From an uncultured Methanosarcinales archaeon (GTDB taxonomy: Archaea > Nanobdellota > Nanobdellia > Woesearchaeales > CAXGTL01), in the NCBI GenBank assembly GCA_964535955.1, contig CAZHVK010000003.1:1-64000 (forward strand): DNA of 64,000 bases. Reading direction: 5' to 3'. The notes beneath the pieces are model-generated. The model was not told the DNA's origin. It worked only from the letters and a program-made list of their open reading frames with translations, and searched no databases. Below, piece by piece: positions 3,390-62,161 of this stretch (the stretch's first letter is position 1; every line of letters begins with the position of its first letter). The translations under genes and the position numbers were made by a program.

Positions 3390-3406
3390 AAAATAAATTA
3401 AACAAA

Positions 3407-8673: not shown

Positions 8674-8729
8674 CCTAACACCTAAACCAACAAAACACAT
8701 AAATACACCCTCTCACACCCATTCTAATC

Positions 8730-25170: not shown

Positions 25171-25713
25171 TTACACTTCTTCAGGAATTTCAATCAATGC
25201 TTTCTTACTTGCACCTGTTATTTTCATCTCTAAATAACCAGTACCAGTATTAAAACAAATAACTTTTTCATTACCTAAACTTATTAACTCATTCTTGATA
25301 GGTATTCCTACACCTGATTTTTCAGGAATAACAAAAACATTCTGAACACCTTTAACAACAGCATTACAAAATAGTGGATCAAAATCAGTAGGAGGTGGGC
25401 ATTTGCTTTCCGATTCAATATTCTCAAAATCAGCAATGCACACTTTTTCAACATAAGAGGGAACACTTACCTGAACATAATTTTGGTCAATACTTTGAAC
25501 ACCAGTATTAATTTTATTATTAAAATCATCTTTAAAAAGATTATAATCAGCAATATCTTTTTTATGGAGAATATCATTTATCCACTTATAACTATAAAAT
25601 AATATAAAACTCATAATCAACAAAGCTAACAAAAAGATAAAAATTTTACCAACCTCAAATCCTTTCTTATTTTTCTTTGTTCTCAAATTTCTATACATAA
25701 TATTTCTATACAT
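25171..25713 (-). CDS. Class III signal-peptide (pilin-like) protein
   Basis: KKNKKG|FEVGKIFIFLLALLIMSFILFY. Confidence 0.75.
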   Translation of the reverse strand: MYRNIMYRNLRTKKNKKGFEVGKIFIFLLALLIMSFILFYSYKWINDILHKKDIADYNLFKDDFNNKINTGVQSIDQNYVQVSVPSYVEKVCIADFENIESESKCPPPTDFDPLFCNAVVKGVQNVFVIPEKSGVGIPIKNELISLGNEKVICFNTGTGYLEMKITGASKKALIEIPEEV

Positions 25714-39250: not shown

Positions 39251-39257
39251 TTCATTC

Positions 39258-42200: not shown

Positions 42201-45200
42201 TGTTCCATCATGCCACATAATAAAATTATCAGGTTTAAGTGCAGTAACAATATAAACAGGTTTAGGATTATTTTCAGAAACAGTATCAGTAACATTTACA
42301 ACACAATCAGCATCATATGCAGTGTTTGTATATAATTTAGAACAAACATCTGTATTAAAATTCTCAAATGTAATTGTTAAGATTCCAGTATCATCACTTA
42401 AAACTTCTTTATGACCTAATACATTTCTATCTTTATTTCTAGCTAAATAAACAGAATTATAATCATCAACACTATCTAATAATTCAAACTCACGTGCATC
42501 TTCATCATAACTAAATCTAAAAAATATTTTTTTAACAAGTTTTACTAATGTAGTTATAGGATGTTCAACCCAATTCTTAAATTTAGTAATTGCAGGTAAA
42601 CCAGATTCAACTAGGACACCATATCTTGAATAAATAACAGATCCTGTTTTCCTATTAAACCATAAAGAATCATCAGTAGCACCACTTGTAGAACATTCAA
42701 AATAATTTCCAAGATTTGGTGCACCTTCACAACTACCAATATCTGCACCAGGCATTATTCTTAAGAAATTCTCAAGTGTTGGTTGTAATTCATTATCTTT
42801 TTTATTTAGACTAACACCAATTATGACCTCTCTTTGTTCATCTGTTGGATAAACTAGCACACAAAAATTATTAACACCTTTAACCTGGCTGCCAATTCCA
42901 CCTAAAAATCCTTCAAGAGATGCCAAATCAGGAACAATATAATCATAATAATTCAAAGTATTTGTATAATCATCACAAAACATAGCAAAACTATCTCCAG
43001 TATTATCATTTCTTAAACCTATTTCAAGTAATTTTTCAGCAATCAGTTTGGTTCTAGAGATCCATTCACCATTATTACAATAATTATCATCTGTCCAATA
43101 ACCAGGATCAATACATTCATTATCCCAACATTGATCATTTGACAAACAATAACCATTTCTTTGTTTATCAAAACTTTGTTTAAAATAAGTTCTTTCCCAA
43201 TCAGCCTGCTCAGAAACAGGATCGTAATAACATACAAACTGATCAAAACCAACCATCTCAAAATATTTTAAACCCCATTTATCTTGACCTAATGAAAATG
43301 AATCAGGACTTCTTGCAAAATAAGTTCCATCACCTACACCTGTAAATGATTGATCGTTAATACCATCCACACATTTATATCCATTAAAACAATATTCTTT
43401 AGGGCAACAACCTTTTTCATACAAAGTATCAGTGCCAAATTCCCCAGCATTTATATTTTTTGGAAAATGATATTCAAATAATTCTTTAGGAATAGTTACA
43501 CATTTATCAGATTCATCTTCATCTAAAACATCATTATTAATTAAACCAGCACAATCATTATAACCAGAAACATCAATATCATCAACATCTTCATCTTGTA
43601 AATAAAACTTCTTAGGAATTTGTTTTGTTTCTGTTCTTTGATTAGCAGGTATAACTGCACCAGAATCCCAAATCCTTGACACAAATGCATCATCACTCCA
43701 CTCAGGAGCATTTATTGGAGGATTACTATATGAACAAAAGAAATCACCAGATATAGAACAAAAATCTTTTTTAACAATTTCATCATCACTTAATCCTGAT
43801 AATTGTTTAAAATCATTAAAATCATTATCATCACTACAAATAAAGAATTTCTTTTTATCATCATCAACACTATCAATATCAGTCCCAATATCAGTATCAT
43901 AAGTTATTTGAAAAGGTACATTACTAGCTCTTATCATTGCAAAATCTTCATTAGTTGATGTCTCACCACCAATTAATTCATAACCTAACCCTTTTTTTCT
44001 TACATATAGTTCATAATCATTACTAACTACACCAATATTATAGTTTCCATTTATTTTATTAGTCACAGGATAAAAACATTCTTGATTACCCACAACACCA
44101 CTATCTTCACATACATAACTTTTTTTCAGAGGATTATCTGAATCAATTTCACCAACTTCATACTCAACATTTCCTATTCTTAAACCATGAGTGATAATCT
44201 GACCAAGCCAACAACCACCATCAGTATCAGTGTAAAATTCATTACCACCTAATCCTTGATCATTTCCACAACATTGTGTTCCTGTCCAAGTATAACTAGG
44301 TGTTTCAACACAAGCAAACTGACCTACAGACGAACCATCAACAGTGTTATCCTTTTTATCAGAGTCAAGATCATTTATCCAAATTCTTTCAGTATTACTA
44401 TTATCTTCAAGATATTTATTTGCAATACAATACTTATTATTTCCAGTTTCATCTTTATATTTTAAAGAAATTCTATCAAAAGAGATTATATTATAATATT
44501 CTTCATTATTTATTTTTAAGTATTTATCATGCGCATCAATAACATTTTTTATAGAAGCTAAAAATACTAATGATTCCACATTATTTAAATCAACACCAAA
44601 CCTGTCTTTTATATTTTGTTCGCCTTGTTTAATTGGAATAACAACATGCATCCATTTATTGATTCCAGGACTACTCACAATATAATCTTTTACATCAAAA
44701 TCAATACTTATCAAATCACCCTGATCATTAGGAGAATTAATTCTTAATTTTAAAACATAATTTTTTTGTGTTTTATAAAAAAACTCTAAATAATCATACT
44801 TAGAAAAATCATGTATAACAGCGTCTGAATTAAAATCATCAACACCCACTTTTTTCTCAATAAAAATAGGAAATGCAAATTTTCTATTATTAGTAGTTTC
44901 ATCATTTTCAACACCTTCTGTATCTCCGCCACCATCACCACCTCCATTATTTTCAGTATTTTCATCATCTTCAATATAAACTATACTATAAGGAAAAGTT
45001 TGTTGTACTTCATAATTTTTTAATCTAAACTCAGCAATTTTGTTTTTTGACAAATCTTCTACAACATTATCATCTTCTTGTTTAAAAGCTTTAATAGATA
45101 ATCCAATAGTAGTACCTTCTACACTTCCGCTTCCAACATAACTAAAATCTTCTTGATAATCAAAATCTTTTAATGTTGTTGATAATGAACCAGCAATTCT

Positions 45201-46763
45201 TAGTTTATCATATTGTAATTCGCCTACATCACCACAATAATCAAGATCAGCACCACAACATTGGACAAACACACCTGCATCATCATGTCTATCACATAAA
45301 AATGTTGATGCTAAATGTTGAGGAGTGTTTTTTATGTTTTCATAGTTAACAGCAGGGACTATACAGACTCCAGGATTACAATCATAATCAATACCATCCC
45401 CTCCACATTTGTCTGCTCTTCCAGGATTTATTTGTTCAGCAATACCTTCTCTATCATAAACCTCATAATCATCATCAGGAAAGTCATCACAATCATTTTC
45501 ACCTAAAGTAAAACCATCATCATCACAATCACAATCATTAATATCATCACCAAACTCTTCACAACATTTAATATATTCAGGATTGTAAACATAAGAAACA
45601 TGACCAGTAATATCTAATATTGAAGATCCTGTTCCTCCTAATGAACTACCAATATCATTCAATGAAGAACCACTACCAAGATTAATACCAGAATCAACAT
45701 CTTCTGGATGAACTAAGTAACCACCTGGTTGCAATTTATTTTCATCTGGCAAATCATTAGGTGAAATCCCTTCTGCATCAGCATCAGCATTATCAACAAG
45801 ACCAGGCATACACACAAACCATTCTTCAGAATTAGAAACAGCATCATACTCATTATTATCATCATCAGCTTCTATAGTATTAATTATAAAATCTTCATCA
45901 TAATTTACCCACCTATAAGCATAATCTTCAGGATTAGTTTGTTCATCACCTAATGCAGAATCAAAACAAAGTTTTCCACTGTATATCATACCATTATCTT
46001 CAGGATCATTATTACCACAACATCTTTTATCTTTATCCATATCTTCAACACTCCAAAAAACACTCTCTTTAATTCCAGGAACAGCAAGTTGATTGATATC
46101 TGTTAATTCATGAACAACTGCAGCACACCTGCTAGGATACATTTCTTCATATTCAATATATTCATGAGAATAAGGCAATTTACAAGCCATTCTATCAGCA
46201 TTGATTCCAGTAAGAAGGTTTGTATCTTCTGTATCACATTCAATAACACTTCCAAAAGGATATCTAGAACCAAGATTGCCATAAAAAGGATCTTTCATTT
46301 CTTGTCCTTCTAATATAACATAATAATTAAAATAATCTGTTTCAGGTTCTCTACCAGGCCCCACATCAAACATTGTTTTTACAAGAGCACAACCAGCTAC
46401 AAAATCATTATTTTCAGAATCAATACATGACATTCTACATTCTATTTCAAGTGCATTACTATGACATTTTGCATCAGGTTGAGTCTCTTCAACATCATAA
46501 AAATCAATATAAGCAGGATAAAATAACACAGGAGCAGAAATATAAGCCGGGTTACGAGAAAAAGGGTCTTCACCTCTTACCATAACAACATCCATTCTAC
46601 ATCCAGACACAGGATCAGATCCACCATGAGACTTTCTTCTACCTTCTGTACAAAGATCACTAGGAAAATAAGAACCATAAGAATAAACAAATAAACTACA
46701 TAAAATTAGTAACAATATTAAAATAATTAAAATAAATGCTATTTGTTTCTTGCGATATTTCAC
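39258..46763 (-). CDS. Giant (2501 aa) secreted Cys/Asp-rich surface protein
   Basis: GTG start with GGGGTAGGT SD; N-terminal hydrophobic helix; DCDD...INPG....C.DGIDYDC metal-binding-type motif; many DxDxDG Ca-binding/TSP3-like repeats; C-terminal Cys repeat block. Confidence 0.85.
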   Translation of the reverse strand: MKYRKKQIAFILIILILLLILCSLFVYSYGSYFPSDLCTEGRRKSHGGSDPVSGCRMDVVMVRGEDPFSRNPAYISAPVLFYPAYIDFYDVEETQPDAKCHSNALEIECRMSCIDSENNDFVAGCALVKTMFDVGPGREPETDYFNYYVILEGQEMKDPFYGNLGSRYPFGSVIECDTEDTNLLTGINADRMACKLPYSHEYIEYEEMYPSRCAAVVHELTDINQLAVPGIKESVFWSVEDMDKDKRCCGNNDPEDNGMIYSGKLCFDSALGDEQTNPEDYAYRWVNYDEDFIINTIEADDDNNEYDAVSNSEEWFVCMPGLVDNADADAEGISPNDLPDENKLQPGGYLVHPEDVDSGINLGSGSSLNDIGSSLGGTGSSILDITGHVSYVYNPEYIKCCEEFGDDINDCDCDDDGFTLGENDCDDFPDDDYEVYDREGIAEQINPGRADKCGGDGIDYDCNPGVCIVPAVNYENIKNTPQHLASTFLCDRHDDAGVFVQCCGADLDYCGDVGELQYDKLRIAGSLSTTLKDFDYQEDFSYVGSGSVEGTTIGLSIKAFKQEDDNVVEDLSKNKIAEFRLKNYEVQQTFPYSIVYIEDDENTENNGGGDGGGDTEGVENDETTNNRKFAFPIFIEKKVGVDDFNSDAVIHDFSKYDYLEFFYKTQKNYVLKLRINSPNDQGDLISIDFDVKDYIVSSPGINKWMHVVIPIKQGEQNIKDRFGVDLNNVESLVFLASIKNVIDAHDKYLKINNEEYYNIISFDRISLKYKDETGNNKYCIANKYLEDNSNTERIWINDLDSDKKDNTVDGSSVGQFACVETPSYTWTGTQCCGNDQGLGGNEFYTDTDGGCWLGQIITHGLRIGNVEYEVGEIDSDNPLKKSYVCEDSGVVGNQECFYPVTNKINGNYNIGVVSNDYELYVRKKGLGYELIGGETSTNEDFAMIRASNVPFQITYDTDIGTDIDSVDDDKKKFFICSDDNDFNDFKQLSGLSDDEIVKKDFCSISGDFFCSYSNPPINAPEWSDDAFVSRIWDSGAVIPANQRTETKQIPKKFYLQDEDVDDIDVSGYNDCAGLINNDVLDEDESDKCVTIPKELFEYHFPKNINAGEFGTDTLYEKGCCPKEYCFNGYKCVDGINDQSFTGVGDGTYFARSPDSFSLGQDKWGLKYFEMVGFDQFVCYYDPVSEQADWERTYFKQSFDKQRNGYCLSNDQCWDNECIDPGYWTDDNYCNNGEWISRTKLIAEKLLEIGLRNDNTGDSFAMFCDDYTNTLNYYDYIVPDLASLEGFLGGIGSQVKGVNNFCVLVYPTDEQREVIIGVSLNKKDNELQPTLENFLRIMPGADIGSCEGAPNLGNYFECSTSGATDDSLWFNRKTGSVIYSRYGVLVESGLPAITKFKNWVEHPITTLVKLVKKIFFRFSYDEDAREFELLDSVDDYNSVYLARNKDRNVLGHKEVLSDDTGILTITFENFNTDVCSKLYTNTAYDADCVVNVTDTVSENNPKPVYIVTALKPDNFIMWHDGTSKLRLHDFDFETHGAYEAVINIPGEGQQFDIYSGDDDDKLLLRAAFEINADGFEENVQAYYWDIDADPNSEFVYGTIYGRVEDVNIRDAYGKNAEGYHLIKLIAVGYDGKYKVDKKLICVNDYQGSKEKYDADGDDIPNGCDIDDDADGICDYDYKGEGDGPGGPCDLYNGKIDNCPFVANGPEKGSCLYGVQEIFWGNTCLEDNECVHDTHGLGLCKKSQEFKPCEIDVDEDGINDAEDAFPNDPGASINTDKDGSPDDLHEGWTHDDIYEYDRLRKKTPLVEDIDDDNDGLLDGGLEEDIIFCKTKPDCDEDGLLDGRNVELSIADVDANDYYKKWININDYNIAYEEFDDSGDGVNDHYRFLGEISASTNSNQVDSDNDGIPDVNEIKPGSDFVRETSIFTSDYYLLEYSSIITLPNPNGADSDNDCLWDGDEITGDEIFAKDDYNNEQHKYQTNPINPDSDLNGGDGMSDGWELYHGFDPTDASDGCDDVDNVACDKDRDGMLNKDEFNCFKELKLPCKYDDVFEQGCDPNDADTDDDGYCDGAEDVVGACIAYLGVDDLGNLVPMPDPNPLSGNGPKILVDETEIIPLPIGTNNEVYFRNPNLNLGGISIKIKTNKESDCWYGLIEDDAKNKKNLMPIVQGTSDGKQKQARILLKDGENIVYLYCEDQAGGYPSEIYDFIKINYDKKRINVADRNIFGLLTTAQKEVTITTNRIGKCRIDVSKEKDEDINYLDLGQEMQALDDQGANANPNQGLQHKAQVDFADLIEEQKELCLQEDVVSDKVRLCLSTIGLDDSSCDYILNPDSKESCKELRSLVKVMKGDQNCEGVLHDEGYKSDAQIACEAIVADLDLQDMIFDDCTAQDEFANCKLYYHLGKAVKLSDTIHCDNIDELGINIGGEENNVFTSMSILCRRIIDGNANLCYNDCGYVFNGYHYLVKCEDPINKVVGDSAESLVNDWMENVFITEISFDPGSLS

Positions 46764-46955: not shown

Positions 46956-47867
46956 ATGAAAACAAAAAGGGATGATATTAAAAGAGTTGACATCAAGACA
47001 GGTTTTATATGCAATAATAATTGTATTTTCTGTGCTCAAGCACATAATAAGCATTTTAGTGATAGAAACTTTGAACAAATAAAAAAAGATTTGATTGAAT
47101 CTAGAGACAGATGCAATGAAATTGTTTTAACAGGCGGTGAAGTTACAATAAGAAAAGACTTCCTTAACATTGTAAAGCTTGCAAAAGACCTTGATTATAA
47201 AGTAATCCAGATACAAACAAATGCTCGTATGCTAAGCAGTCTAGATTTCTGTAAAAAAACAATAAAAGCAGGTGCAACAGAATTCAATCCAGCAATTCAT
47301 GGTTATTGTTCAGAACAACATGATTATTTAACAAGATCACCTGGAAGCTTTAAACAAACAATTAAAGCAATAAAAAACCTAAAGTCATTAGGAGCCTATG
47401 TTCTGACAAACACAGTTATTGTCAAATCAAATTACAGAAATATACCACAAATTGCAAAACTTCTTGTTAAATTAAAAGTTGACCAGTTTCAGTTTGCATT
47501 TGTCCACCCAATAGGGAATGTTCTAAAAAACTTTGACAAAATTGTACCAAACATAACAATTGCAAGCAGATACATACAAAAAGGTCTAAAGATTGGAATA
47601 GACAAAAACATAAAAGTAACATCAGAAGCAATTCCGTTTTGTTTAATACAAGGATATGAAGATTATATTGCAGAAAAAATAATTCCAAACATCGAAGTAA
47701 GAGGTGAACAACACCAAAACATGGACGATTTTTCAGATCAAAGAAAAAACACAGAAAAAACAAAATTCAAACAATGCAATGAATGTGAGTACAACAAAAT
47801 CTGTGAAGGTGTTTGGAAAGAATATGTTGAAAAGTATGGTGATAAAGAGTTTGTTCCTGTAAAATAA
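46956..47867 (+). CDS. Radical SAM protein (HxsC-like, His-Xaa-Ser cluster associated)
   Basis: CNNNCIFC, LTGGEVT, IQTNAR, EAIPFC, C-terminal CNECEYNKICEG. Confidence 0.88.
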   Translation: MKTKRDDIKRVDIKTGFICNNNCIFCAQAHNKHFSDRNFEQIKKDLIESRDRCNEIVLTGGEVTIRKDFLNIVKLAKDLDYKVIQIQTNARMLSSLDFCKKTIKAGATEFNPAIHGYCSEQHDYLTRSPGSFKQTIKAIKNLKSLGAYVLTNTVIVKSNYRNIPQIAKLLVKLKVDQFQFAFVHPIGNVLKNFDKIVPNITIASRYIQKGLKIGIDKNIKVTSEAIPFCLIQGYEDYIAEKIIPNIEVRGEQHQNMDDFSDQRKNTEKTKFKQCNECEYNKICEGVWKEYVEKYGDKEFVPVK

Positions 47868-47898
47868 AAAGATAAATAAATATTACACCCAACACAAT

Positions 47899-47957
47899 TA
47901 GCTCCTGAAAAAATATGGGTGGGTGGTAGGGGGCATACTATAAGGATGGTGGGAAAT
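47899..47957 (+). promoter_or_regulatory. G-rich leader element, copy 2
   Basis: GGGTGGGTGGTAGGGGGC...GGTGGGAAAT, matching the element at 19604-19656. Confidence 0.4.
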
Positions 47958-47971
47958 AAAACAAAAACAAG

Positions 47972-49009
47972 ATGAAACCAAAAAAATACAAATGGATATC
48001 AATAACAAAACTTTGTAATAATAACTGCCTCTTTTGTCTAGATGGAAATGAAAAAAATAGAAAACATAGACCATTAAAAGAGATAAGGCAAGAACTAGAA
48101 AAAGATATAAAACAAAATATAGAACAAAACACAAGACAAGATACAAAAAAAGAAACACAAAAAGAAATAAAACAAGAAAACAAAAAACTAATCATAAGTG
48201 GAGGAGAACCAACAATCCATCCAGGTTATATAGAAGTAATTAAGTTAGGCAAAAGTCTCGGCTATAAAAAAATCCAAACAATAACAAACGGAAGAATGTT
48301 TTCATATAAACCATTTCTTGATACAACAATCAAAGCAGGGCTTAATGAAATAACATTCTCAATCCATGGTCACACAAAAGAATTACATGATGACCTAACA
48401 AGATCACCAGGAAGTTTTGATCAAATAATAAAAGCAATAAAAAATGCACAAAATGCAAGCTTGTTAAGCAAAAGTCTGTTTAACAAAGAAATAATAATTA
48501 ATACAGACATTGTGCTGAACAAAAAAAACATAGATCAATTTCCAGAAATAATAAAATTCCTCATAAATCTAGGGATAAAAGAAATAGATGTTCTTCAAGT
48601 AATTCCTTTTGGTCATGCATGGACTAATAAAGGCATTATGTTATATAACATTGAAGAAAAGATAGACACAATAAAAAAAGGTTTTGACATTGCAATCCAA
48701 AACAAGGTTGTCTTATGGACAAATAGGTTTCCTCCAGAATTTCTCAAAGGATATGAACACCTGATCCAAGATCCAAGCAAGATCATAGACGAACTTGAAC
48801 AAAGAAAACAATATTTTGAACAATTACTAGAAAAAGATGAAACTCCACCATGCTTTAACAAAAGATGTAGATATTGTTTTTTAAAACTTGCATGTCAAAA
48901 GATATTTGTTGAAAAACAAACAGTAATTAACAATAATATAGATATTGAAAAAATAGAAGGCTGTCTGAGACAAGAAATAAAAAGAATAAAAGAAAAGAGT
49001 GGGAAATAA
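47972..49009 (+). CDS. Radical SAM protein (His-Xaa-Ser cluster associated)
   Basis: CNNNCLFC, ISGGEPTIHP, QTITNGRM, FSIHGH, IPFGHAW, C-terminal C....CRYC.....C. Confidence 0.88.
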   Translation: MKPKKYKWISITKLCNNNCLFCLDGNEKNRKHRPLKEIRQELEKDIKQNIEQNTRQDTKKETQKEIKQENKKLIISGGEPTIHPGYIEVIKLGKSLGYKKIQTITNGRMFSYKPFLDTTIKAGLNEITFSIHGHTKELHDDLTRSPGSFDQIIKAIKNAQNASLLSKSLFNKEIIINTDIVLNKKNIDQFPEIIKFLINLGIKEIDVLQVIPFGHAWTNKGIMLYNIEEKIDTIKKGFDIAIQNKVVLWTNRFPPEFLKGYEHLIQDPSKIIDELEQRKQYFEQLLEKDETPPCFNKRCRYCFLKLACQKIFVEKQTVINNNIDIEKIEGCLRQEIKRIKEKSGK

Positions 49010-49016
49010 AATAAAA

Positions 49017-50735
49017 ATGAAAACAAACAAATTTCATAATTACATCCAAATAACAAGAAGATGTAATCAAGAATGTGTATTTTGCTCAAATCCTTACATT
49101 GATCAGGATTTAACATTAGAGGAGTTCAAAAAATTGATTGATGAATTAAAAACATTGGGATGCAAAGATGTGTTTCTTACAGGAGGGGAACCAACTCTAA
49201 ACAAAGAATTATTTGATATGATAAGATATTGCAAAGACATAAACATAAATGTAAAGATGATAACAAATGCACAGTTATTATCTAATGAAGACTTTTACAA
49301 AAAGATAATTGATTCAGGAATATCTACAATTCACATCTCAACATATTCGCATAAAAAAGAAATACATGACAAGATAACACGAAAAAAAGACAGTTATGAT
49401 AATTTGATAAAAGCATTGAAAAATATAACAAAAATAAGCAACACAACAAACAACATAATAGGTCACAAAAAAGTAAATGTGAATTTAAATATAGTAATAA
49501 GTTCATTTAATTACAATGAATTATCACAAACAATAGATTTTTACATAAAGAATTTTCCAACAATAAATCATTATTGTTTGAATTATATTGATGTTAATTC
49601 TGGAAGAGCAAAAGACAAAACAGAATTTGCACCAAGATATATATTAATTGAACATGAACTTAACAAATCATTACATTTATTGAAAAATAATAATAAAACA
49701 TTCAGAATAGAAAGAATACCATTATGTTATTTAACAGAATTTGAAGATTTAAACACAGAATGCAGAAAAATAGTAAAAAAAGAACAACATGTCATAAAAT
49801 ACACTAACAAAAACAACATAACATATCATAACAAGCCACCAGAGTATCACAAAAATCAATCATGTAAAATATGCAAATTAAAAAGAATCTGCCCAGGAAT
49901 TTATAACAAAGAAATATTAGACAGAAATGAAAATTATCCTGTATTTATTGATCCATTAAAAATAATATCAAAAATTCTAAAAAACAAAATACAATTTAAT
50001 TTTATACCATATGATAAAGCACAATCATATTATCTAAAAAATAAAAAGATTGATCCAAACACAAATATTCAAGAAAAAAATATGAATGCTGATTTATTAA
50101 AAATAACAGAATATTTAAGAAAAATATTAAGACCAAATAAAATTATTAGTTTTAAAGACTTAAAAGACAATACCATAAATGACAAGTTCAACATATTCAT
50201 AGGAGGGGAACATAAATTATCCAAAGATATAATCAACAACATCAAAGACATTCAAAAGATAATAATCATAGACGCACACCTAGACTTATTTCCTGATAAA
50301 AATGATCTTGGAAGAGCAACATGGATGAATAAATTAGATCCAAAAAATATAATACACATTGGAGGGCATTTAACAGAACATTACAAAAAAACATCAAACA
50401 AACTAATAACACAGGGTACGAAATTTTTTCCAATCAAAGATGGAAAAATACATTATTATAATAAAAATCAAGAATTAGAAAACTTTGATGAAAACAGGTT
50501 CCAAGAATTGATAAAAGACAAGAATGTTTACCTATCAATAGACATCGACGCATTCAACAACACTTTTGGTTTATACAAAAAACAGGAAAAATGTTTAGAA
50601 CCTGAGTTCATTTCTAAATTACATTTATATAAAACAAACATCATTGGTGCTGATATCATGGAAATTTCATCAAAAAAAGGAATTAATAAAATAAAACAAA
50701 TAATTCAAGAAACAATCTTGTCAAGGTGTTACTAA
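49017..50735 (+). CDS. Radical SAM protein fused to C-terminal arginase/ureohydrolase-family domain
   Basis: CNQECVFC, TGGEPT, ERIPLC, CKICKLKRICPG; then GGEH, DAHLD, YLSIDID, DIME. Start ATG 49017 or GTG 48999. Confidence 0.85.
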   Translation: MKTNKFHNYIQITRRCNQECVFCSNPYIDQDLTLEEFKKLIDELKTLGCKDVFLTGGEPTLNKELFDMIRYCKDININVKMITNAQLLSNEDFYKKIIDSGISTIHISTYSHKKEIHDKITRKKDSYDNLIKALKNITKISNTTNNIIGHKKVNVNLNIVISSFNYNELSQTIDFYIKNFPTINHYCLNYIDVNSGRAKDKTEFAPRYILIEHELNKSLHLLKNNNKTFRIERIPLCYLTEFEDLNTECRKIVKKEQHVIKYTNKNNITYHNKPPEYHKNQSCKICKLKRICPGIYNKEILDRNENYPVFIDPLKIISKILKNKIQFNFIPYDKAQSYYLKNKKIDPNTNIQEKNMNADLLKITEYLRKILRPNKIISFKDLKDNTINDKFNIFIGGEHKLSKDIINNIKDIQKIIIIDAHLDLFPDKNDLGRATWMNKLDPKNIIHIGGHLTEHYKKTSNKLITQGTKFFPIKDGKIHYYNKNQELENFDENRFQELIKDKNVYLSIDIDAFNNTFGLYKKQEKCLEPEFISKLHLYKTNIIGADIMEISSKKGINKIKQIIQETILSRCY

Positions 50736-51901
50736 TGCCTATAAAAATAGAAAAAGATAATAGACTAAAACATATAAGGCTGATGATTACAGAAAGGTGT
50801 AATCTTAATTGTAAGTATTGTTATCTCATAAATAAAGAACAAAAAGATATGGAATTAGAAACAGCAAAGAAAAGTGTTGACCTATTATTTGACCAACCAG
50901 GAAGATACAAAGAAATTTATTTTTTTGGAGGAGAACCACTGATAAGGTTTGACACAATAAAAAAAGTCATAGAATATGCAGAACAAGAAAAAATTAAAAA
51001 AAATAAAATAATTGATTATGAACTAAACACAAATGGATTATTGATAACAAAAGATATATTGGATTTTTTAAGACAATACAAAGTAAGGATTGCATTCAGC
51101 ATCGATGGAAAACAAGACACATTCATAGGACTAAGAGGAACTAAAGAACAATATTCACAAATAATAAACAATCTAAAATTAACAATAAAACACAATAATG
51201 AACAAGCAAGAGTTAGAGCGACCATTCATCCAACAAAAGTCCAGAATTTATTTTTTAATTTCGAATATTTATATGATCTAGGTATTAACAAGATTGCAAT
51301 TGGTCCTGCCCAAGGAATTATGTGGGAAAAACAACAAATTAAAGATTTTCATATAAACATTAACAAGATCATTGATTTTTATCTTGATAAGATAAGAAAA
51401 AACAAAATATTTTATGTAACTTTTATATCCGAATACATAGATTGCCTAACAAGAGAAGACAAAGAAAGATCATTGTGTTACTTAGGTGAAGGCTTAAATA
51501 TAGAAGTTGATGGTAATTTTACAGCATGCAGTTATTGCGGGCAGCTTGCAAAAAATCCAAAACTAACTCAATTAATGAATATAGGACACATTAACAAAGG
51601 AATAGACCAAGAAAAAATTAAATATTTTCTTAATTACTTAATCTGTCAGGATTTTGATTTAAATTGTAAAGAATGTAAACCATTATTATGCAACCATATT
51701 TGTTTTGTTTATTCACCTAATGGAGAAAAATACCCTCTTGAGTTCATGACAAATCATTACAAAACTAGAAAAGTTATGTACCTTGCAGTAAAAAATATGT
51801 ACAAAAATCTAATAAAAAACAAAGAATATAATACAATAAGAAAAATAATTTCAATCTCTAAAAACATGTCTGTAAAGAATTATAATAAAAAATTCTCATA
51901 A
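50735..51901 (+). CDS. Radical SAM protein with SPASM/twitch-like C-terminal Cys cluster
   Basis: ITERCNLNCKYC, FFGGEPL, NTNG, SIDG; CYLG....DGNFTAC...CKEC....C...C; TAATG coupling with the upstream stop. Confidence 0.88.
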   Translation: MPIKIEKDNRLKHIRLMITERCNLNCKYCYLINKEQKDMELETAKKSVDLLFDQPGRYKEIYFFGGEPLIRFDTIKKVIEYAEQEKIKKNKIIDYELNTNGLLITKDILDFLRQYKVRIAFSIDGKQDTFIGLRGTKEQYSQIINNLKLTIKHNNEQARVRATIHPTKVQNLFFNFEYLYDLGINKIAIGPAQGIMWEKQQIKDFHININKIIDFYLDKIRKNKIFYVTFISEYIDCLTREDKERSLCYLGEGLNIEVDGNFTACSYCGQLAKNPKLTQLMNIGHINKGIDQEKIKYFLNYLICQDFDLNCKECKPLLCNHICFVYSPNGEKYPLEFMTNHYKTRKVMYLAVKNMYKNLIKNKEYNTIRKIISISKNMSVKNYNKKFS

Positions 51902-51909
51902 CTAGCCTA

Positions 51910-52839
51910 TCAATAAGAAGAAGAGTTTACAATTTCTGATACACACAAACTTTTTTGTTCTTGTTCTAAACATTGTTTATAAAAATCAATATTCTTTCCA
52001 AAAAAATTATCACAATAATTTGTATTAAGGGCATTTTCACATTCTTCAACATCAAGATTAGTCAAAGCAAAACACATTGCTCTTACATCTGATTCTTCTA
52101 AATCAAAACAAAGATTACTAGATTTAAATAAAAAAGCACTAAACAATACATACAACTTTCTTTCCATAAAACCATATGAAATCTTATCAATTTTATCCAA
52201 ATTCAAAATATTCATATTACAAGCATTTTTAAGACTAAGATAGGATATCACATCACAAAAAGAACCATCATTGGAATCAAAAGCTTTTAGATAATTATAA
52301 ATATCCATACATTCAGTACTAGTATTTATTTGATCACAAAGATTAATATTTCCTGAGATTTTACTCTTACAAAAAATCATAGACTTTTCATCAACAATAT
52401 GATCACAAAAATTAAGATTGTTTGTTTTTATTGCTTTGCACCAAAAAATGTCAGCATCTAAATCATCACAAGATTTATCATTAACAAGTTTAACAAAACC
52501 CTGATAAGTTAATATAGATGATTTACACCTTTCAACAACATCATCGACCAATAAATCACATTGGTCTAAATCTTCATCAAAAAAAGCTCTGCATTCAAAG
52601 ATAGAATTAATTCTCTCTTTATTATTAACAAATTCACAATTTTCTAAAAATCTTGCTAATTCATCATATTCATAATTAGTTACATTATTTTGTTTCTCTA
52701 TTATTTGGCTATTGATTTTATTATATATCTTATTATTATCATCATTATCATCATCCACAAAATACAAAAATAAATAGCAGAAAAGAAACAAAATTAACAA
52801 AACAAACAACAAATTAAATACTTTTATTTTTCTACGCAT
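51910..52839 (-). CDS. Membrane-anchored Cys-repeat protein
   Basis: N-terminal TM helix; repeats of C.......N...CD.I.......C. Confidence 0.75.
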   Translation of the reverse strand: MRRKIKVFNLLFVLLILFLFCYLFLYFVDDDNDDNNKIYNKINSQIIEKQNNVTNYEYDELARFLENCEFVNNKERINSIFECRAFFDEDLDQCDLLVDDVVERCKSSILTYQGFVKLVNDKSCDDLDADIFWCKAIKTNNLNFCDHIVDEKSMIFCKSKISGNINLCDQINTSTECMDIYNYLKAFDSNDGSFCDVISYLSLKNACNMNILNLDKIDKISYGFMERKLYVLFSAFLFKSSNLCFDLEESDVRAMCFALTNLDVEECENALNTNYCDNFFGKNIDFYKQCLEQEQKSLCVSEIVNSSSY

Positions 52840-52963
52840 ATTATTTTACCTAGATTATACTAGAAAACCTCTTTTTTTATTTGCATATAAAAGCAAAAAG
52901 TAATAACAATAATAATTTAATAATAAAAATAATTTAATAATGACAATAATTATAATAAAATAA

Positions 52964-53326
52964 TCACATTCTACAACCACAATTACCATGGCTTGCATGA
53001 CTTGAATGACTTGAATGTATTGCATGATTATGTTTGCCAACTATTTCTTCTGCCTGTTCATCATAGTCCATAGACAATTCATTACAATGATCACCATAAC
53101 CAGCATTCATTTTAGGTGTAGTATATTCAGCTACTAATTCATCACCATTTTCATCATAAGTAATATGTGTACGAGGAACACAGTCAGCTTTAACACTTCT
53201 CAAACCACCAAGAGCAATTATGCTCAAAAGAACACCAGTCTTAATAAGACTTTCTTTACTTATCTTACCATCCTCTTTTGTTAAAAATGAAGCAATCTTC
53301 TTTTTTAGTTTAGGTATTGTATTCAT
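52964..53326 (-). CDS. His-Xaa-Ser repeat precursor peptide (HxsA-like) with N-terminal export/pilin-like leader
   Basis: C-terminus KHNHAIHSSHSSHASHGNCGCRM; directly downstream of hxsB; GAGGT SD before ATG 53326. Confidence 0.85.
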   Translation of the reverse strand: MNTIPKLKKKIASFLTKEDGKISKESLIKTGVLLSIIALGGLRSVKADCVPRTHITYDENGDELVAEYTTPKMNAGYGDHCNELSMDYDEQAEEIVGKHNHAIHSSHSSHASHGNCGCRM

Positions 53327-53385
53327 AATCAACCTCTTTTATTAATATTATTTAATTATTTACATCTTATTAGCTATAATCATTA

Positions 53386-54759
53386 TTATTGTTTCTTCTT
53401 ATTTATAAACTTTTCTTTCACAACCCAGTCAAACTGCTTCTTAAATATCATGCACCTTCCAGATTTTGAAATAGGCCCTATTATATTACCATGCTCTTCA
53501 TAATTGCAAACAGGACAAACACCACAATAAGGTTTGTAAACACAACCATCACATATATATTGGTCATTTATTGAAGCATTGACAAGGACACAAGATTTAT
53601 CGCAACCAATTATATTTTTATATTTATTTGACTTAACATTGCCTAATAAAAACATATCATCACCAACCATTCTTGCCTCATCACAAGGATAAATATCCCC
53701 ATTATGATTATAAGCTAGTTGTCCAATAACAGCACCACAAGGAGTTCTCAAATCAAGATAATTAAAATCAAACTCAGTGTTTATTTTTTTATACATCATG
53801 CCAACCATTCTTTCATTTATTTTTATACCTTTTTTCTTTAACTCCTCAATATAAGTCACAGCTTTTATCCAAAAATTCATATATTCCTCAACAGAAGAAT
53901 TAATTGAGGTCCATGTTTTTTTAGCAACACCAATTTTATTTAAAAATCTAAGATGAATAATCCCTAAACCTAATTTAACATATTCATCAACAATTTCTTT
54001 CGGAGACTTCATACTTTCTCTTGTCAATGTAACTAAAGCATTGATTTGTTTATCCTTAATATTTCTTTTATTATATTCTTCATTAAATATTTTTATCCAT
54101 TTAACAACCTGTTCATAATTACTCTCTTCTGCAAATTTTCTATTATGATCATGAAGTTCTTTAGGACCATCTAGAGAAGTGCACACACTAACATTATGAT
54201 TAATCAAATAATTCATTTTTTCATGGTTCATATCAACCATATTTGTTACCATTGTAATTTCTAATTTTCTTTTTTCTTTTTTATTCTTTTCTTGTGCATA
54301 TTCTGTAATAAATTTAACAACATCCCAATTTAATAATGGTTCTCCACCCTGAAACTCTATTGTTAAATAACTGCTCTGGCTCTGAAAAATAAAATCAACT
54401 GTTTTTTTTGCAGTTTCTTTATCCATATCATATTCTTTTTTGGTCATAGGCCTTGAACTAGCCTGACAATAAACACAGTTCATATTACATCTTAAGGTTA
54501 CAACAACTATGTGCAAAGAAGTTCCTCTAAATAAAAAATTATATCTGTTTCTCATTAATCTCACTGTCTCATCAATATTTTCATTAGTTAATATTATTTC
54601 TCTTTGTTCTAATTTCTTCTTCAACTCGCCATTTATGTTGCCTTTTCTAAAATTATTAAATTCATCTTTAGTAAGAATAAGATAACTACCATGATCTGTT
54701 GTTAAAAAATACTTTTCACCAAACCTCTTAAACCTATAATTATTTATTTTATAATTCAT
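53386..54759 (-). CDS. hxsB: His-Xaa-Ser system radical SAM maturase HxsB
   Basis: YRFKRF...YFLTTDHG, TSLHIVVVTLRCNMNCVYCQ, IEFQGGEPLLN, SLDGPKELHD.NR, YLDLRTPCGA..GQLAYN..GDIYPCDEARM, SPASM Cys. Confidence 0.9.
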   Translation of the reverse strand: MNYKINNYRFKRFGEKYFLTTDHGSYLILTKDEFNNFRKGNINGELKKKLEQREIILTNENIDETVRLMRNRYNFLFRGTSLHIVVVTLRCNMNCVYCQASSRPMTKKEYDMDKETAKKTVDFIFQSQSSYLTIEFQGGEPLLNWDVVKFITEYAQEKNKKEKRKLEITMVTNMVDMNHEKMNYLINHNVSVCTSLDGPKELHDHNRKFAEESNYEQVVKWIKIFNEEYNKRNIKDKQINALVTLTRESMKSPKEIVDEYVKLGLGIIHLRFLNKIGVAKKTWTSINSSVEEYMNFWIKAVTYIEELKKKGIKINERMVGMMYKKINTEFDFNYLDLRTPCGAVIGQLAYNHNGDIYPCDEARMVGDDMFLLGNVKSNKYKNIIGCDKSCVLVNASINDQYICDGCVYKPYCGVCPVCNYEEHGNIIGPISKSGRCMIFKKQFDWVVKEKFINKKKQ

Positions 54760-54760
54760 T

Positions 54761-54976
54761 TTAAATAAAATTATTATTTTTCATCAAACCTAAAACATAA
54801 TTACAGAACTCCTCTTTTAAAAATTCAACATCCTGCTTAGGGACTAATTCAATCAAAAGTTTATCAGCAGACAAGTCTACACCCAAAAATTTACCATCAC
54901 AAACCTCTTTAAAATCGCACAAACCTTGTTCAACAACTTCTTTATTATAAAAATTTTTATTCAGTTGTATTATCAT
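54761..54976 (-). CDS. Small HxsD-like protein
   Basis: MIIQLNKNFYNKEVV...EEFCNYVLGL parallels the HxsD pattern; GAGGT SD before ATG 54976 (track start 55003). Confidence 0.65.
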   Translation of the reverse strand: MIIQLNKNFYNKEVVEQGLCDFKEVCDGKFLGVDLSADKLLIELVPKQDVEFLKEEFCNYVLGLMKNNNFI

Positions 54977-55424
54977 TTTGTTTATTAACCTCAGCTTTGC
55001 CATACTTTTCTTCCCAAGGAACAGCTATATCATCAGGATCGCTAAAATCAGAATCATCATCAAGCTCTTCTAATGATTCATCTAATTCATCATCTTGCAA
55101 AATAGAAGGATCATTTGTTATCAAAGCTCTTTGTATAATACTTTCCCTTATCTTCTTGGTTTTCTCAGCCCTATTATGATAATCAGAATAATTAACTAAT
55201 TCATTAAAAAATTCACCACCTAAAAACTTTAGATCTTTTTCATCTTTAGGAATAATTTTAACAATAATATTTGTTTTAGGGTCACCATCTAAAATAATAT
55301 AAGCAATATCAAGAAAAACATATGAAGCAGAATATATTGTTTGTAAACTATAAATTTCAGGATTTATGTTCAGAACTATATGTTTGCCTTCAATTTTAAT
55401 ATTATTTTCAACAGTATTATCCAT
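54957..55424 (-). CDS. hxsD: His-Xaa-Ser system protein HxsD
   Basis: INPEIYSLQTIYSASYVFLD..Y, EFFNELVNY, EKTKKIRESIIQRAL; acidic tail ending IAVPWEEKY. Confidence 0.8.
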   Translation of the reverse strand: MDNTVENNIKIEGKHIVLNINPEIYSLQTIYSASYVFLDIAYIILDGDPKTNIIVKIIPKDEKDLKFLGGEFFNELVNYSDYHNRAEKTKKIRESIIQRALITNDPSILQDDELDESLEELDDDSDFSDPDDIAVPWEEKYGKAEVNKQNDNTTE

Positions 55425-55435
55425 ATTTATCCCCT

Positions 55436-56455
55436 TTAATAAAGGAGATTCATTAGTACTATTAAAACATTTCCCTTAAAAATCAGGGTTAATAAAACAC
55501 CTAAAAAAATAAAAGGTGCAAAGGGGATTGTTTGGCTAATCTTTACATTTTTTAAACCAAGTTTTTTAATCCCTTGTATTTGTTCTTTTGTTAAACCTTC
55601 TGGTTCTACATCAATTTCTTTTATATTTTGTCCTAAAACCATGCCAAGCTTTAATCGATTGGTATTAACAGTTTTACTAAATATTTCTGAACCCAACTTT
55701 GAAATTGAGCCTGATAAAAAACTCCTAATAACTTTCCAAATTAGGACAATGATCAAAAAATTAATAGCAAAATCAATAGAATAAACAGATTTATCAACAA
55801 GTAATCGTATTAATGAAACAAAAACACTGACATAAAATGATTTATCTTTAAACTTACTTTGAATAAATGAAAAAACAACAAGAGTTAAAGCTACTCTAAC
55901 AAGATAATCATTTAATCCTATAAAAGAAAGTAATAATTGGATTATCCAAAATATTGCAAAAAGATTTACAACAGAAACCAACAATTGTTTTGGTTGAAAA
56001 AATTCTTTAAAAAAATCTAAAACAACATTCCCCACCATTTTTAGATTAGACTTAAACAACATCAAAAATAACATAATAATTAGGGCAGGGATATAGATAT
56101 TGATCAGCAATACAACAGATGGTATGAACTTTTGATAACCAATATTATATACAGATAATGGTAACAAAGCTGCAAAAGCAATAAATAATTTACCATCACC
56201 AGTTGTCCACAGTTTAAAATACCAAAAACCAAAACCAATCAAGACAACAAATATGAAATTTGTCAGTAGTTCAATAAGATAACCTAGACTTAACATAGAA
56301 TTAAAATAATAATAAGAGATTAATATTAAATAAACAATAAAAGTATAACATAAACTAAAAACAATCCATTTATTTCTAATCTTGCCAAACTTAATATCTT
56401 CATAACTTGTTATTAAACCCAACAATATGATTGCAGGTAAAAAATATATTATCAT
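55436..56455 (-). CDS. A24-family prepilin/preflagellin peptidase (PibD/FlaK-like)
   Basis: Both catalytic Asp motifs (SYEDIKFGKIRN and WTTGDGKL), polytopic membrane protein, C-terminal IPFAPFIFLG. Confidence 0.88.
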   Translation of the reverse strand: MIIYFLPAIILLGLITSYEDIKFGKIRNKWIVFSLCYTFIVYLILISYYYFNSMLSLGYLIELLTNFIFVVLIGFGFWYFKLWTTGDGKLFIAFAALLPLSVYNIGYQKFIPSVVLLINIYIPALIIMLFLMLFKSNLKMVGNVVLDFFKEFFQPKQLLVSVVNLFAIFWIIQLLLSFIGLNDYLVRVALTLVVFSFIQSKFKDKSFYVSVFVSLIRLLVDKSVYSIDFAINFLIIVLIWKVIRSFLSGSISKLGSEIFSKTVNTNRLKLGMVLGQNIKEIDVEPEGLTKEQIQGIKKLGLKNVKISQTIPFAPFIFLGVLLTLIFKGNVLIVLMNLLY

Positions 56456-56554: not shown

Positions 56555-57343
56555 ATGCGAAAAAAGAGTCAGATAACAATCTTTATTATAATTGGGATTT
56601 TATTACTTTTAAGTGTTTTTCTTATGTTTTATTATCTAAACTACAGCATACAAGAACCAATAGAACCAGATACAAACACACAAAACCAGCACATAATTGG
56701 ATTTATTGAAGGGTGTGTTGATCAAAAAGCAAAACAATCTCTTTTCTACCTAGGTTTTATAGGTGGTGACACAAAGATAAAAAAATTATCAACAAATGAG
56801 TATGAATTCCCATTCAAAGAGTATTATGAATATGATGAATATTATAAAATTCCATACCATTTTCATAATAATATCCCTATTATTGAATCAGTCCAAATAA
56901 AACAAATTCTAGAAGAATTCATGAATCAGAATTTTAAATATTGTATTAAGAATTTTGACAATTTTCAACAACAAGCTGTTTTTGATTTTGAATCTGAACC
57001 AGAAACAGATGTACTTATCAAAGATAAAGAAGTAATATTTAATGTTAATTTTCCAGTCAAAGTAGAAAAAACAGGTCAAAAAGAAATACTAGGCCCTGTA
57101 TTCACAACAAAAATTCCTTTAAGATTGAAAAAGATTGATGAGATAAACCGCCACATTATTGATGAAGCTAAAAAAGATTCATCTATCATCCATTGGCCTT
57201 ATCTAAAACAAATAACAGAACAAGATTTCAACATAACAGCATATCCTGGAAAACAAAACACAATTCTCTACAGAATCATTGATGAAAAATATAAGATTGA
57301 CAATAATGAGTTTGTATATCAGTTTGCTGTAAAAGTTAAATAA
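56555..57343 (+). CDS. Class III signal-peptide (pilin-like) protein
   Basis: MRKKS|QITIFIIIGILLLL; FIEGC...LGFIGG resembles the N-terminal domain of the 36398-39250 protein. Confidence 0.8.
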   Translation: MRKKSQITIFIIIGILLLLSVFLMFYYLNYSIQEPIEPDTNTQNQHIIGFIEGCVDQKAKQSLFYLGFIGGDTKIKKLSTNEYEFPFKEYYEYDEYYKIPYHFHNNIPIIESVQIKQILEEFMNQNFKYCIKNFDNFQQQAVFDFESEPETDVLIKDKEVIFNVNFPVKVEKTGQKEILGPVFTTKIPLRLKKIDEINRHIIDEAKKDSSIIHWPYLKQITEQDFNITAYPGKQNTILYRIIDEKYKIDNNEFVYQFAVKVK

Positions 57344-61985: not shown

Positions 61986-62161
61986 AAATCAAACCCATTT
62001 TAGTCCTTATTAACAAATTCTAAGCTCATTCTAATTACCTTAAAACCTCAGATTAGGGCAATACACACCTTCTACCACACAAATGCAAACAGAACACTTA
62101 TAAAGACTAAAATATTTCTTATTATTGTAGGAATTTGTTCTTGACAAAGAGACGAAAGCTA

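Follow-up and report, generated by a model that had tools for sequence, protein, structure and literature searches.

A leader-bearing His-Xaa-Ser peptide locus with a divergent A24-type membrane peptidase in a Woesearchaeota-like archaeon

The 64-kb stretch of DNA analysed here (hereafter the window; positions 1 to 64,000 of contig CAZHVK010000003.1, assembly GCA_964535955.1) comes from an uncultured archaeon and carries, at 46956-56455, a group of genes related to the His-Xaa-Ser (HXS) systems, in which radical S-adenosylmethionine (SAM) enzymes act on a precursor with tandem HxS triads. This region is very probably one member of a widespread HXS variant class with leader-bearing precursors (HxsA3/HxsA4-type). 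Much of the class also encodes a divergent relative of the A24 family of GxGD-type polytopic membrane aspartyl peptidases, here called Pep. The explanation that we favor is that radical SAM enzymes modify the precursor under guidance of its leader, and that Pep then removes the leader at a conserved Gly; as a whole, it has about even chances of being right. An earlier reading of the letters and open reading frames (ORFs), the sequence-only reading, had taken the region for an elaborated His-Xaa-Ser system of a DPANN-type archaeon. Archaeal markers in the window and the closest HxsB relatives bear out the host. The system, however, is not a special archaeal elaboration, as the same class is present in the Candidate Phyla Radiation (CPR), Elusimicrobiota, Myxococcota and others, and is partly modeled in NCBIfam.

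The parent system has a known function; the sequence-only reading knew of no established product. According to the available text of Li et al. (2026; PMC13128918), the HXS system of E. coli blocks phage DNA entry, N-terminal cleavage of HxsA requires HxsB, HxsC and HxsD, a +8 Da change maps to SHRSS of HxsA, and HxsC binds HxsD. The same text gives 99.7% of HXS systems as belonging to Pseudomonadota, >99.8% as having four genes and 99.6% as having the order D-B-C-A; it describes the protease that trims HxsA as unknown and the +8 Da chemistry as unsolved. Common to the canonical system (HxsD-HxsB-HxsC-HxsA, TIGR03976-03979) and the window are HxsB, HxsD, a precursor with tandem HxS triads and HxsC-related radical SAM proteins, and the N-terminal precursor processing that is part of canonical maturation (PMC13128918, available text) is a further likeness to the system proposed here. 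In contrast, the window has three HxsC-like paralogues for the single HxsC, an additional PapB-like radical SAM enzyme, an HxsD-like protein and the A24-type peptidase. Its gene order is Pep-HxsD-HxsD-like-HxsB-precursor with convergent HxsC-like genes, its host is an archaeon, and its precursor of 120 residues has a conserved leader where the canonical HxsA starts with a plain signal peptide and has HRS repeats. The C-terminal peptidoglycan-binding domain described for canonical HxsA (PMC13128918, available text) is absent from the window precursor.

Two convergent and tightly packed operons fill the region, and their stop codons are separated by only 8 nt. All ten ORFs were found in the ORF list at the coordinates and on the strands first described; calculated from these coordinates, plus-strand overlaps are 11 and 10 nt and minus-strand gaps range from 1 to 124 nt. 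The five radical SAM genes claimed for the two runs are indeed there, each product having a CxxxCxxC motif and a match to Pfam PF04055 above cut-off. They are the only such genes of the window, every one lying inside 46956-54759. This clustering is more than chance, because all radical SAM genes of the window are found here and the same genes occur together again in other genomes.

The minus-strand operon encodes the recognizable HXS core, and the initial HxsB, HxsD and HxsD-like calls were all confirmed by NCBIfam searches. HxsB (53386-54759, 457 residues) is a radical SAM/SPASM maturase that scores 450.3 bits on TIGR03978 (cut-off 370), contains Radical_SAM, Fer4_12 and SPASM domains by Pfam, and is 34.5% identical over 446 residues to an annotated HxsB on an Aeromonas plasmid. 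HxsD (54957-55424, 155 residues) passes TIGR03976 marginally, with 50.9 bits against a cut-off of 50. The HxsD-like protein (54761-55003, 80 residues) matches NF038315 over residues 12-75 with 45.2 bits (cut-off 41); because the start as listed makes for a 47-nt overlap with hxsD, translation may really begin at an internal Met. HxsB has relatives in large number, 4,558 of the 8,000 scored having E<=1e-20. Where named, the closest ones (53-71% identity) belong to Woesearchaeota, Nanoarchaeota and Nanobdellota.

The distribution of the system was examined in species-representative genomes, in which a scan for HxsB yielded 600 relatives; the best 80 were inspected with up to 10 kb of sequence on each side. 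The phylum grouping of these 80 loci follows database names, some of which are probably generic. Of the 29 archaeal loci, 25 had a Pep homologue, which in 22 cases was no more than 300 bp away from another gene of the system, and HxsD and HxsD-like homologues were present in 27 and 20 of the same 29. The usual archaeal gene order is that of the window, Pep-HxsD-HxsD-like-HxsB-precursor. Among bacteria, Pep homologues were detected in 4/9 CPR loci, where Pep lies 7-10 kb from hxsB, in 7/16 Elusimicrobiota loci, in 2/11 loci of other bacteria, and in 0/15 loci of the Myxococcota/Proteobacteria/Bdellovibrio group. All these counts miss peptidase genes beyond the 10-kb flanks. In CPR and Elusimicrobiota, Pep is located inside or at the end of same-strand arrays of radical SAM genes. 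The sequence-only reading would have fallen had the peptidase and the plus-strand radical SAM genes not been syntenic with hxsB elsewhere; both Pep and the HxsC-like genes recur near hxsB, so that this condition did not refute the reading, which is supported in part.

In an HxsB tree of 81 rows, from which the partial locus L029 was omitted, all 37 Pep-positive loci and the window fell into one 62-row clade supported by a Shimodaira-Hasegawa-like approximate likelihood ratio test (SH-aLRT) value of 96, and a 16-row Myxococcota clade was without Pep. The window itself was placed in a 9-row clade of Pep-positive archaea (SH-aLRT 100). As a proxy for shared contigs, the 120 best matches to HxsB and those to Pep were compared by the length of their longest contigs, and 34 of 119 such lengths coincided. 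In view of this synteny, Pep is likely to be a component of the system.

Pep (55436-56455, minus strand, 339 residues) had been called an A24 peptidase from its sequence. This call is invisible in the window protein alone, which gave no significant match in Pfam or NCBIfam (the best was Arc_PepC, PF06819, at E=0.4, with no PF01478), and it stands at the level of the family, by virtue of the matches found among 31 members, their motifs and the predicted fold. At E<=1, Peptidase_A24 (PF01478) matches 25/31 members and Arc_PepC, the archaeal A24 C-terminal domain, matches 18/31, with best E values of 2.6e-8 and 1.7e-8. An alignment of the window protein with 30 homologues from related loci shows D20, N28, D87, K89, F312 and A313 to be invariant, within the motifs TSYxDxKxGKIRNK, WxAGD(G/A)KLF and PFAxxxFxG. 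We take these motifs to be typical of A24 enzymes and, by analogy, D20 and D87 to be the catalytic residues. The AlphaFold2 model of Pep has a predicted local distance difference test (pLDDT) value of 92.5, and its top two fold matches among PDB structures in Foldseek were the two chains of the GxGD peptidase FlaK (3s0x_B and 3s0x_A; E 0.12, with a probability of 1.00, and 0.22). Pep has in common with the A24 peptidases the two invariant Asp (D...N and GD(G/A)K), and it is predicted to have a polytopic helical fold for which FlaK is the best, if weak, structural match. In the putative Pep substrate, a charged leader, Gly and a hydrophobic stretch follow one another. Other members of the A24 family are PibD and EppA in archaea and TadV/CpaA, which act on Flp pilins, in bacteria. 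Pep differs from A24 peptidases in its genomic tie, which is to radical SAM maturases and not to genes of the pilus or archaellum.

A profile search among 1.84 billion sequences recovered 1,133 cluster representatives of the Pep family at E<=1e-30, mostly named hypothetical protein in public records, and no NCBIfam model matched the window protein or any of three relatives (3/3). Locus L008, from a Woesearchaeota genome, is informative in this regard since it contains two A24-type genes: a canonical one (6218-7123, plus strand; PF01478 49.2 bits, cut-off 26.5) and, with the canonical gene 1 kb upstream, an Hxs-linked one (8117-9253, plus strand; PF01478 20.3 bits, Arc_PepC 27.9 bits). Pep is probably a specialized paralogue, or branch, of the A24 peptidases. 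The public record of the window gene gives a product of 286 residues, 84% of the ORF, that starts past the first conserved Asp motif. The alignment of 30 homologues supports the 339-residue reading over this shorter version.

The presumed substrate is encoded next to hxsB at 52964-53332 on the minus strand and is the only precursor ORF of its kind in the window. It has 122 residues from a TTG start or, as described in the sequence-only reading, 120 from the ATG at 53326, which has AGAGG 6 nt upstream; its C-terminal end is HAIHSSHSSHASHGNCGCRM, as that reading had it. The protein comprises a conserved leader (residues 1-33, 53234-53332) ending at Gly33, a short hydrophobic stretch, a variable region, three tandem triads HSS HSS HAS (residues 106-114, 52991-53017) and a CGCRM tail. 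Arg occupies the penultimate position and residues 45 and 54. With three triads, plus four Cys, it stands at the repeat-poor end of the class. Over residues 6-57 it matches profile positions 2-51 of HxsA3 (NF038309) with 35.6 bits (cut-off 65); HxsA (TIGR03979; 23.1 bits, cut-off 121.65) and HxsA2 match the C-terminus weakly. Searches of Pfam and NCBIfam found no domain besides the HxS region, and in particular no peptidoglycan-binding domain. Because a charged leader is followed by a hydrophobic stretch, the precursor is probably exported, in agreement with what had been proposed for it.

ORFs with at least three tandem HxS-type triads occur in 49 of the 80 loci, and the leader pattern PK(I/L)KKKxxxFLxxEEGKISK is common to nearly all triad-bearing precursors. 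An alignment of 27 rows has P7, E20, G22 and K26 invariant and K11, F16, I24, G33 and H109 conserved at >=90%. After the leader, related precursors contain an apolar stretch, a small-x-small site (by eye), a variable part and His-rich repeats that often end in Tyr or Trp. Two of the eight related precursors tried exceed the HxsA4 cut-off of 55 (L055 with 66.1 bits and L070 with 59.4 bits). The window resembles the NCBIfam variants HxsA3 (NF038309), HxsA4 (NF038313), HxsC4 (NF038332) and HxsD-like (NF038315) in a leader that can be aligned to HxsA3, in the HxsD-like protein and in the best matches of its first two HxsC-like proteins, C1 and C2. It departs from them in scores that stay below the cut-offs (35.6 against 65 for the precursor, 167 against 500 for C1) and in a peptidase that has no model. 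Extreme precursor-like ORFs were seen at L023:20265-20984 (plus strand) and L054:11598-14476 (plus strand), one of them with 52 HxS-type triads; among the ORFs of this kind in these two loci are three in tandem, of 273-277 residues and rich in His, Ser, Asn and Ala, each ending in HxSHxSW.

We propose the following sequence of events. In the cytoplasm, the leader of about 25 residues (PKxKKKxxxFLxxE[ED]GKISK) would dock the precursor on a machinery of HxsB, HxsC-like proteins and HxsD, with HxsD and the HxsD-like protein as partners by analogy with the HxsC-HxsD complex. This machinery would modify the C-terminal HxS triads, as the need for HxsB, HxsC and HxsD and the +8 Da change in E. coli would lead one to expect, the PapB-like enzyme may cross-link Cys, and the ureohydrolase domain of the third HxsC-like protein may act on Arg, for instance on the penultimate residue. 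The hydrophobic stretch behind the leader would bring the peptide to the membrane, where Pep would cut at the conserved Gly between leader and stretch, in the manner of A24 enzymes acting on class III signal peptides. The modified His-rich part would then be outside the cell and, by analogy with bacterial HXS, might hinder the entry of viral DNA. We rate cleavage at Gly33, which is suggested by residue conservation, at somewhat below even chances. The antiviral or envelope-barrier role, which is drawn from the E. coli system, is put forward tentatively.

The nature of the product allows for a different view, namely a metal-binding peptide that is secreted or sits at the surface (as a metallophore, or for storing Ni, Zn or Cu) or an antimicrobial peptide made by ribosomes and modified after translation (a RiPP), with no role as an antiviral barrier. 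Mature parts that are nearly pure (HxS)n or (HGS)n, with up to 52 triads, would be expected to bind metal, the precursor is devoid of a peptidoglycan-binding domain, and the envelopes of DPANN and CPR hosts are very different from those of the bacteria that carry canonical systems. Lack of that domain, together with an archaeal host, also means that the bacterial mechanism is not transferable unchanged. On the other hand, the sole experimental result for any HXS system in the available text of PMC13128918 is defense against phages, with an HxsA that binds DNA. A metal-binding or antimicrobial product seems rather unlikely to us.

As for processing, several observations weigh against a cut by Pep at the conserved Gly, and the likeness of the hydrophobic stretch to the core of a Sec signal peptide is the main weakness of our proposal. 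Class III (prepilin-type) signal peptides have a hydrophobic helix of about 20 residues. Over 56 precursors, the stretch that follows the conserved Gly has a median of 11 apolar or small residues (range 7-15); G33 stands at position -1 as in a class III substrate, but a stretch of this length falls short of the long helix. The Hxs leader is, moreover, long (about 31 residues) and highly conserved in comparison with A24 substrates, and the stretch is roughly half a pilin helix. Together with the small-x-small site that comes after it (VKA|D in the window, by eye), the stretch looks less like a pilin-type helix than like a usual Sec signal peptide. Conservation of the junction is also ambiguous: G or A occupies this position in 47/55 loci overall and in 28/30 Pep-positive loci, but also in 19/25 loci where no Pep was seen, and the pattern is confounded by lineage. 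In favor of the cut, 5/6 precursor-positive loci of the Pep-less Myxococcota/Proteobacteria/Bdellovibrio group have neither G nor A at the junction and, by reading of the rows, have Ser. The FlaK match of Pep is weak (template modeling score 0.52 on the target, 154 columns), no fold match reached E<=1e-3, and PDB sequence searches with the single protein and with the 31-sequence profile retrieved no A24 structure, FlaK included. K at position -3 is not counted as part of the cleavage motif, since only about half of the archaeal precursors have it, and pilin-like anchoring of the mature peptide is made less likely by the short hydrophobic stretch.

Since the stretch resembles the core of a Sec signal peptide, signal peptidase I may make the final cut. 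In its full form, this alternative regards leader and stretch together as a Sec signal peptide of the ordinary kind, whose n-region is long and which signal peptidase I cleaves at an AxA-like site, and gives Pep some other role, for example in clearing the leader or signal remnant from the membrane as signal-peptide peptidases do. The short length of the stretch (7-15 residues, median 11) speaks for it, many precursors have small residues at -3 and -1 (VKA|D, ANA|G, AKA|D and ASA|A, by eye), and the signal peptide of canonical HxsA is a plain one (PMC13128918, available text). Yet the available text of the same study describes HxsA cleavage in E. coli as other than simple signal-peptide removal, with HxsB, HxsC and HxsD all being needed. 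The near-invariant Gly at the boundary of the n-region and the hydrophobic stretch argues in the same direction: such a residue is a hallmark of A24 substrates and not a feature of Sec signal peptides. We consider this route improbable but keep it as a rival, and retain leader removal by Pep as the preferred reading.

Pep could also be the general prepilin or pre-archaellin peptidase of the organism, serving the pilin-like and giant surface proteins encoded nearby, its adjacency to hxs genes being due to conserved Woesearchaeota gene order. Pep is in fact the sole A24-type gene of the 64 kb, and it coexists there with at least seven ORFs with class-III-like N-termini (K[GAS]Q plus a hydrophobic segment, by eye; 17731-19428, 22908-23444, 23992-25104, 25171-25713, 36398-39280, 39258-46763 and 56555-57343), a setting that speaks against a dedicated role. 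Homologues of the flanking gene 56555-57343 share loci with Pep (L020, L039, L041, L060, L062 and L064). However, Pep is embedded in radical SAM arrays in four CPR loci (L016, L019, L023 and L059) and in nine loci of Elusimicrobiota and relatives (L028, L035, L036, L038, L043, L044, L046, L048 and L049), and L008 has its canonical A24 gene besides the Hxs-linked one. Presence inside such arrays across phyla, taken with the L008 paralogue pair, argues against pure coincidence. Where measured, Pep family scores are also below the Pfam A24 cut-off, as expected of a specialized branch. A general housekeeping role for Pep is thus distinctly unlikely.

The plus-strand operon starts with three genes for HxsC-like radical SAM proteins, C1 (46956-47867, 303 residues), C2 (47972-49009, 345 residues) and C3 (48999-50735, 578 residues). 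Their assignment is subject to objections of its own. None of them passes the NCBIfam cut-offs: C1, C2 and C3 score 167, 113.8 and 76.5 bits on HxsC4 (NF038332, cut-off 500) and 99, 73.1 and 106 bits on HxsC (TIGR03977, cut-off 267.9), HxsC4 being the best NCBIfam match of C1. They are 21-24% identical to canonical annotated HxsC, the first ~100 residues of which are missing from them. The three represent distinct orthogroups, with 67-126 bits against one another (84-126 for C1 against its window paralogues). In their favor, orthologues were found in other Hxs loci, in 18 for C1 and 9 for C2 (both at >=200 bits) and in 8 for C3 (>=170 bits), and when 11 such radical SAM proteins from other loci were tested, HxsC4 was the best NCBIfam match of 10 and HxsC that of the remaining one, with none of the 11 passing the HxsC4 cut-off. 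Loci with at least three HxsC-like genes account for 7/29 of the archaeal, 9/9 of the CPR, 7/16 of the Elusimicrobiota, 3/15 of the Myxococcota-group and 6/11 of the other loci. We consider it quite probable that the HxsC-like genes belong to the system.

When 24 long ORFs were scanned for additional domains, the HxsC-like ones among them proved to be fused to a methyltransferase, a glycosyltransferase 2, DUF364, BpsA_C, a carbamoyltransferase and DUF362 with ferredoxin (loci L001, L006, L008, L009, L015, L030, L055, L061 and L069), and some to further radical SAM domains. This variety suggests that the second domains on HxsC-like radical SAM proteins are interchangeable tailoring modules. That the plus-strand operon would be a separate small-molecule, polyamine or cofactor pathway that abuts the hxs operon, as could be proposed from its opposite strand, the failure of C1-C3 at the HxsC and HxsC4 cut-offs, the fusion elsewhere to domains characteristic of the metabolism of small molecules (methyltransferase, glycosyltransferase, BpsA_C, carbamoyltransferase and DUF364; here arginase) and an arginase domain of PF00491 rather than of the peptide-arginase family PF12640, is very improbable, considering that orthologues of C1, C2 and C3 are located beside hxsB in archaea and bacteria alike, that in CPR loci such orthologues are found between Pep and the precursor gene without a change of strand, that all 11 tested proteins have HxsC4 or HxsC as best match, that the close relative L001 has the same convergent layout, and that there is no further radical SAM gene in the window.

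C3 is a fusion with a ureohydrolase domain, and the arginase domain noticed at the outset was recovered by Pfam at residues 366-561 (50094-50681) with 48.2 bits on PF00491 (cut-off 22; E 1.4e-12). Its motifs GGEH, DAHLD and SIDIDAF align with GGDH, DAHLD and SVDVDGF of agmatinase 1wog, the sole PDB sequence match of the domain (E 0.005), and GGEH, DAHLD and SIDID presumably provide the Mn ligands. The fusion is rare. Only one other protein cluster among 2,276 candidates combines a radical SAM domain with PF00491, none of eight C3 orthologues checked carries a ureohydrolase domain, and the arginase domain has no homologue in any of the 80 loci, so that, although present, it is not among the conserved parts of the system. 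A model of the radical SAM-ureohydrolase fusion from a 10-row alignment was too poor for further use (mean pLDDT 60.1, and 22-70 over the ureohydrolase part).

The peptide arginases OspR, FlmR and OhkR offer a comparison, as they too are ureohydrolase-superfamily domains in peptide-modifying clusters, and the window precursor contains Arg. They belong to PF12640 according to the available text of PMC12703449 (see also PMC10028609), and for that reason the C3 domain, which is of PF00491, is not one of them; it also differs in being fused to a radical SAM domain. No PF12640 match was obtained at E<=0.01, and the PDB search with the C3 domain did not retrieve OspR. Membership of C3 in the peptide arginases was therefore rejected, and action on a peptide Arg was kept only as a possible activity.

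The fourth plus-strand gene (50726-51901, 391 residues) encodes a radical SAM/SPASM enzyme, S4, whose best NCBIfam match is PapB (NF047865). Its residues 14-318 cover positions 2-307 of the 330 of that profile and, as in a PapB setting, the precursor tail contains Cys (CGC); the score of 178.9 bits is nevertheless far under the cut-off of 340. Orthology of S4 elsewhere is weak (>=100 bits in three loci only), and several loci, in CPR and elsewhere, have an S4-like gene behind that of the precursor. Thus, of the four plus-strand radical SAM genes that had been ascribed to the system, the three HxsC-like ones are syntenic elsewhere and S4 falls short of this. A PADLOC search (2023 library, which has no HXS model) gave generic viperin-type radical SAM matches only.

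The minus-strand operon ends with a gene for a Cys/Asp-rich protein with an N-terminal hydrophobic anchor (51910-52839, 309 residues). Besides 31 Asp it contains 19 Cys, which recur every 10-12 residues or so and are in many cases part of a CD pair. The Cys-repeat membrane protein of the sequence-only reading is real, but it is not counted as a conserved part of the system, since no Pfam, NCBIfam or PADLOC family matches it and it has no homologue in the 80 loci and no analogue downstream of the precursor gene in eight close relatives. Its best Atlas score was 0.86. The protein is encoded in the same operon, and its membership in the system is doubtful. Judging from the position of its gene between those of the precursor and the PapB-like enzyme, it could be a second substrate of the latter.

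The remainder of the window fits an archaeal, Woesearchaeota-like contig. Pfam identified the archaeal markers FEN1/XPG, RFC small subunit, an eRF1-family protein, RNase P p30, TYW2 and TrmB, and G+C is 25-32%. The regions 17731-46763 (minus strand) and 56555-57343 (plus strand) look like a pilin or surface-protein island, with class-III-signal-like N-termini (K[GAS]Q plus a hydrophobic stretch); giant proteins of 3,484, 960 and 2,501 residues without a Pfam family are encoded in it, and parts of the 2,501-residue protein and of 56555-57343 are also encoded close to Pep in L020, L041, L053 and L062. Elsewhere in the window we observed a TYW2/Trm5-type methyltransferase fused to an AP_endonuc_2 (xylose-isomerase-like TIM barrel) domain at 3347-5182 (plus strand), a gene for a Cas4/PD-(D/E)XK nuclease at 8730-9539 (plus strand), and at 62135-64000 (plus strand), running off the window end, the N-terminus of a gyrase/topoisomerase subunit A split by a LAGLIDADG-containing intein (Pfam).

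Parts of this picture were known beforehand. NCBIfam holds models for HxsA3, HxsA4, HxsC4 and the HxsD-like protein, and the function of the parent system has been reported. Three elements are new: an A24-type peptidase family dedicated to the system, HxsC-like arrays of modular make-up in which tailoring domains are fused to the enzymes, and the rare radical SAM-ureohydrolase fusion. A membrane protease encoded together with a radical SAM maturase has a counterpart in the epipeptide pathway, in which EpeP is thought to cleave and export the product (PMC10885120, available text); EpeP is an intramembrane M50 metalloprotease, however, and its family is unrelated to that of Pep. In the available text of this 2023 review of RiPP leader proteases (PMC10885120), the terms A24, prepilin, aspartic and aspartyl have 0 occurrences each. 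Among the matches listed, no paper on HXS names HxsA3 or HxsC4, and none on radical SAM or RiPP leader peptides contains the words prepilin peptidase.

In its widest form, our proposal is that a so far unannotated A24 branch would provide the leader peptidase of radical SAM-modified His-Xaa-Ser peptides in DPANN archaea, CPR and Elusimicrobiota, coupling leader removal to membrane insertion, and that a cross-linked His-rich peptide would be displayed or polymerized at the surface with an antiviral or host-contact role. We consider this wide version rather unlikely. If true, Pep would be the first leader peptidase of a RiPP-like pathway to be of the aspartyl, intramembrane type, and it would supply the missing protease logic of HXS maturation.

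The locus and its 80 relatives reveal a deeper, leader-bearing branch of HXS that is common in DPANN archaea, CPR, Elusimicrobiota and Myxococcota, and much of which encodes the peptidase and extra radical SAM enzymes. It gives a name to a family of >1,000 protein clusters mostly called hypothetical. The methyltransferase, glycosyltransferase and ureohydrolase add-ons form a natural series for dissecting the chemistry of these systems. The branch also raises the question of what role an HXS-type effector has in peptidoglycan-free cells that live attached to other cells. Pep is a concrete candidate for the HXS processing step, and a dedicated membrane protease may explain both how the peptide is trimmed and how it is delivered to the cell surface.

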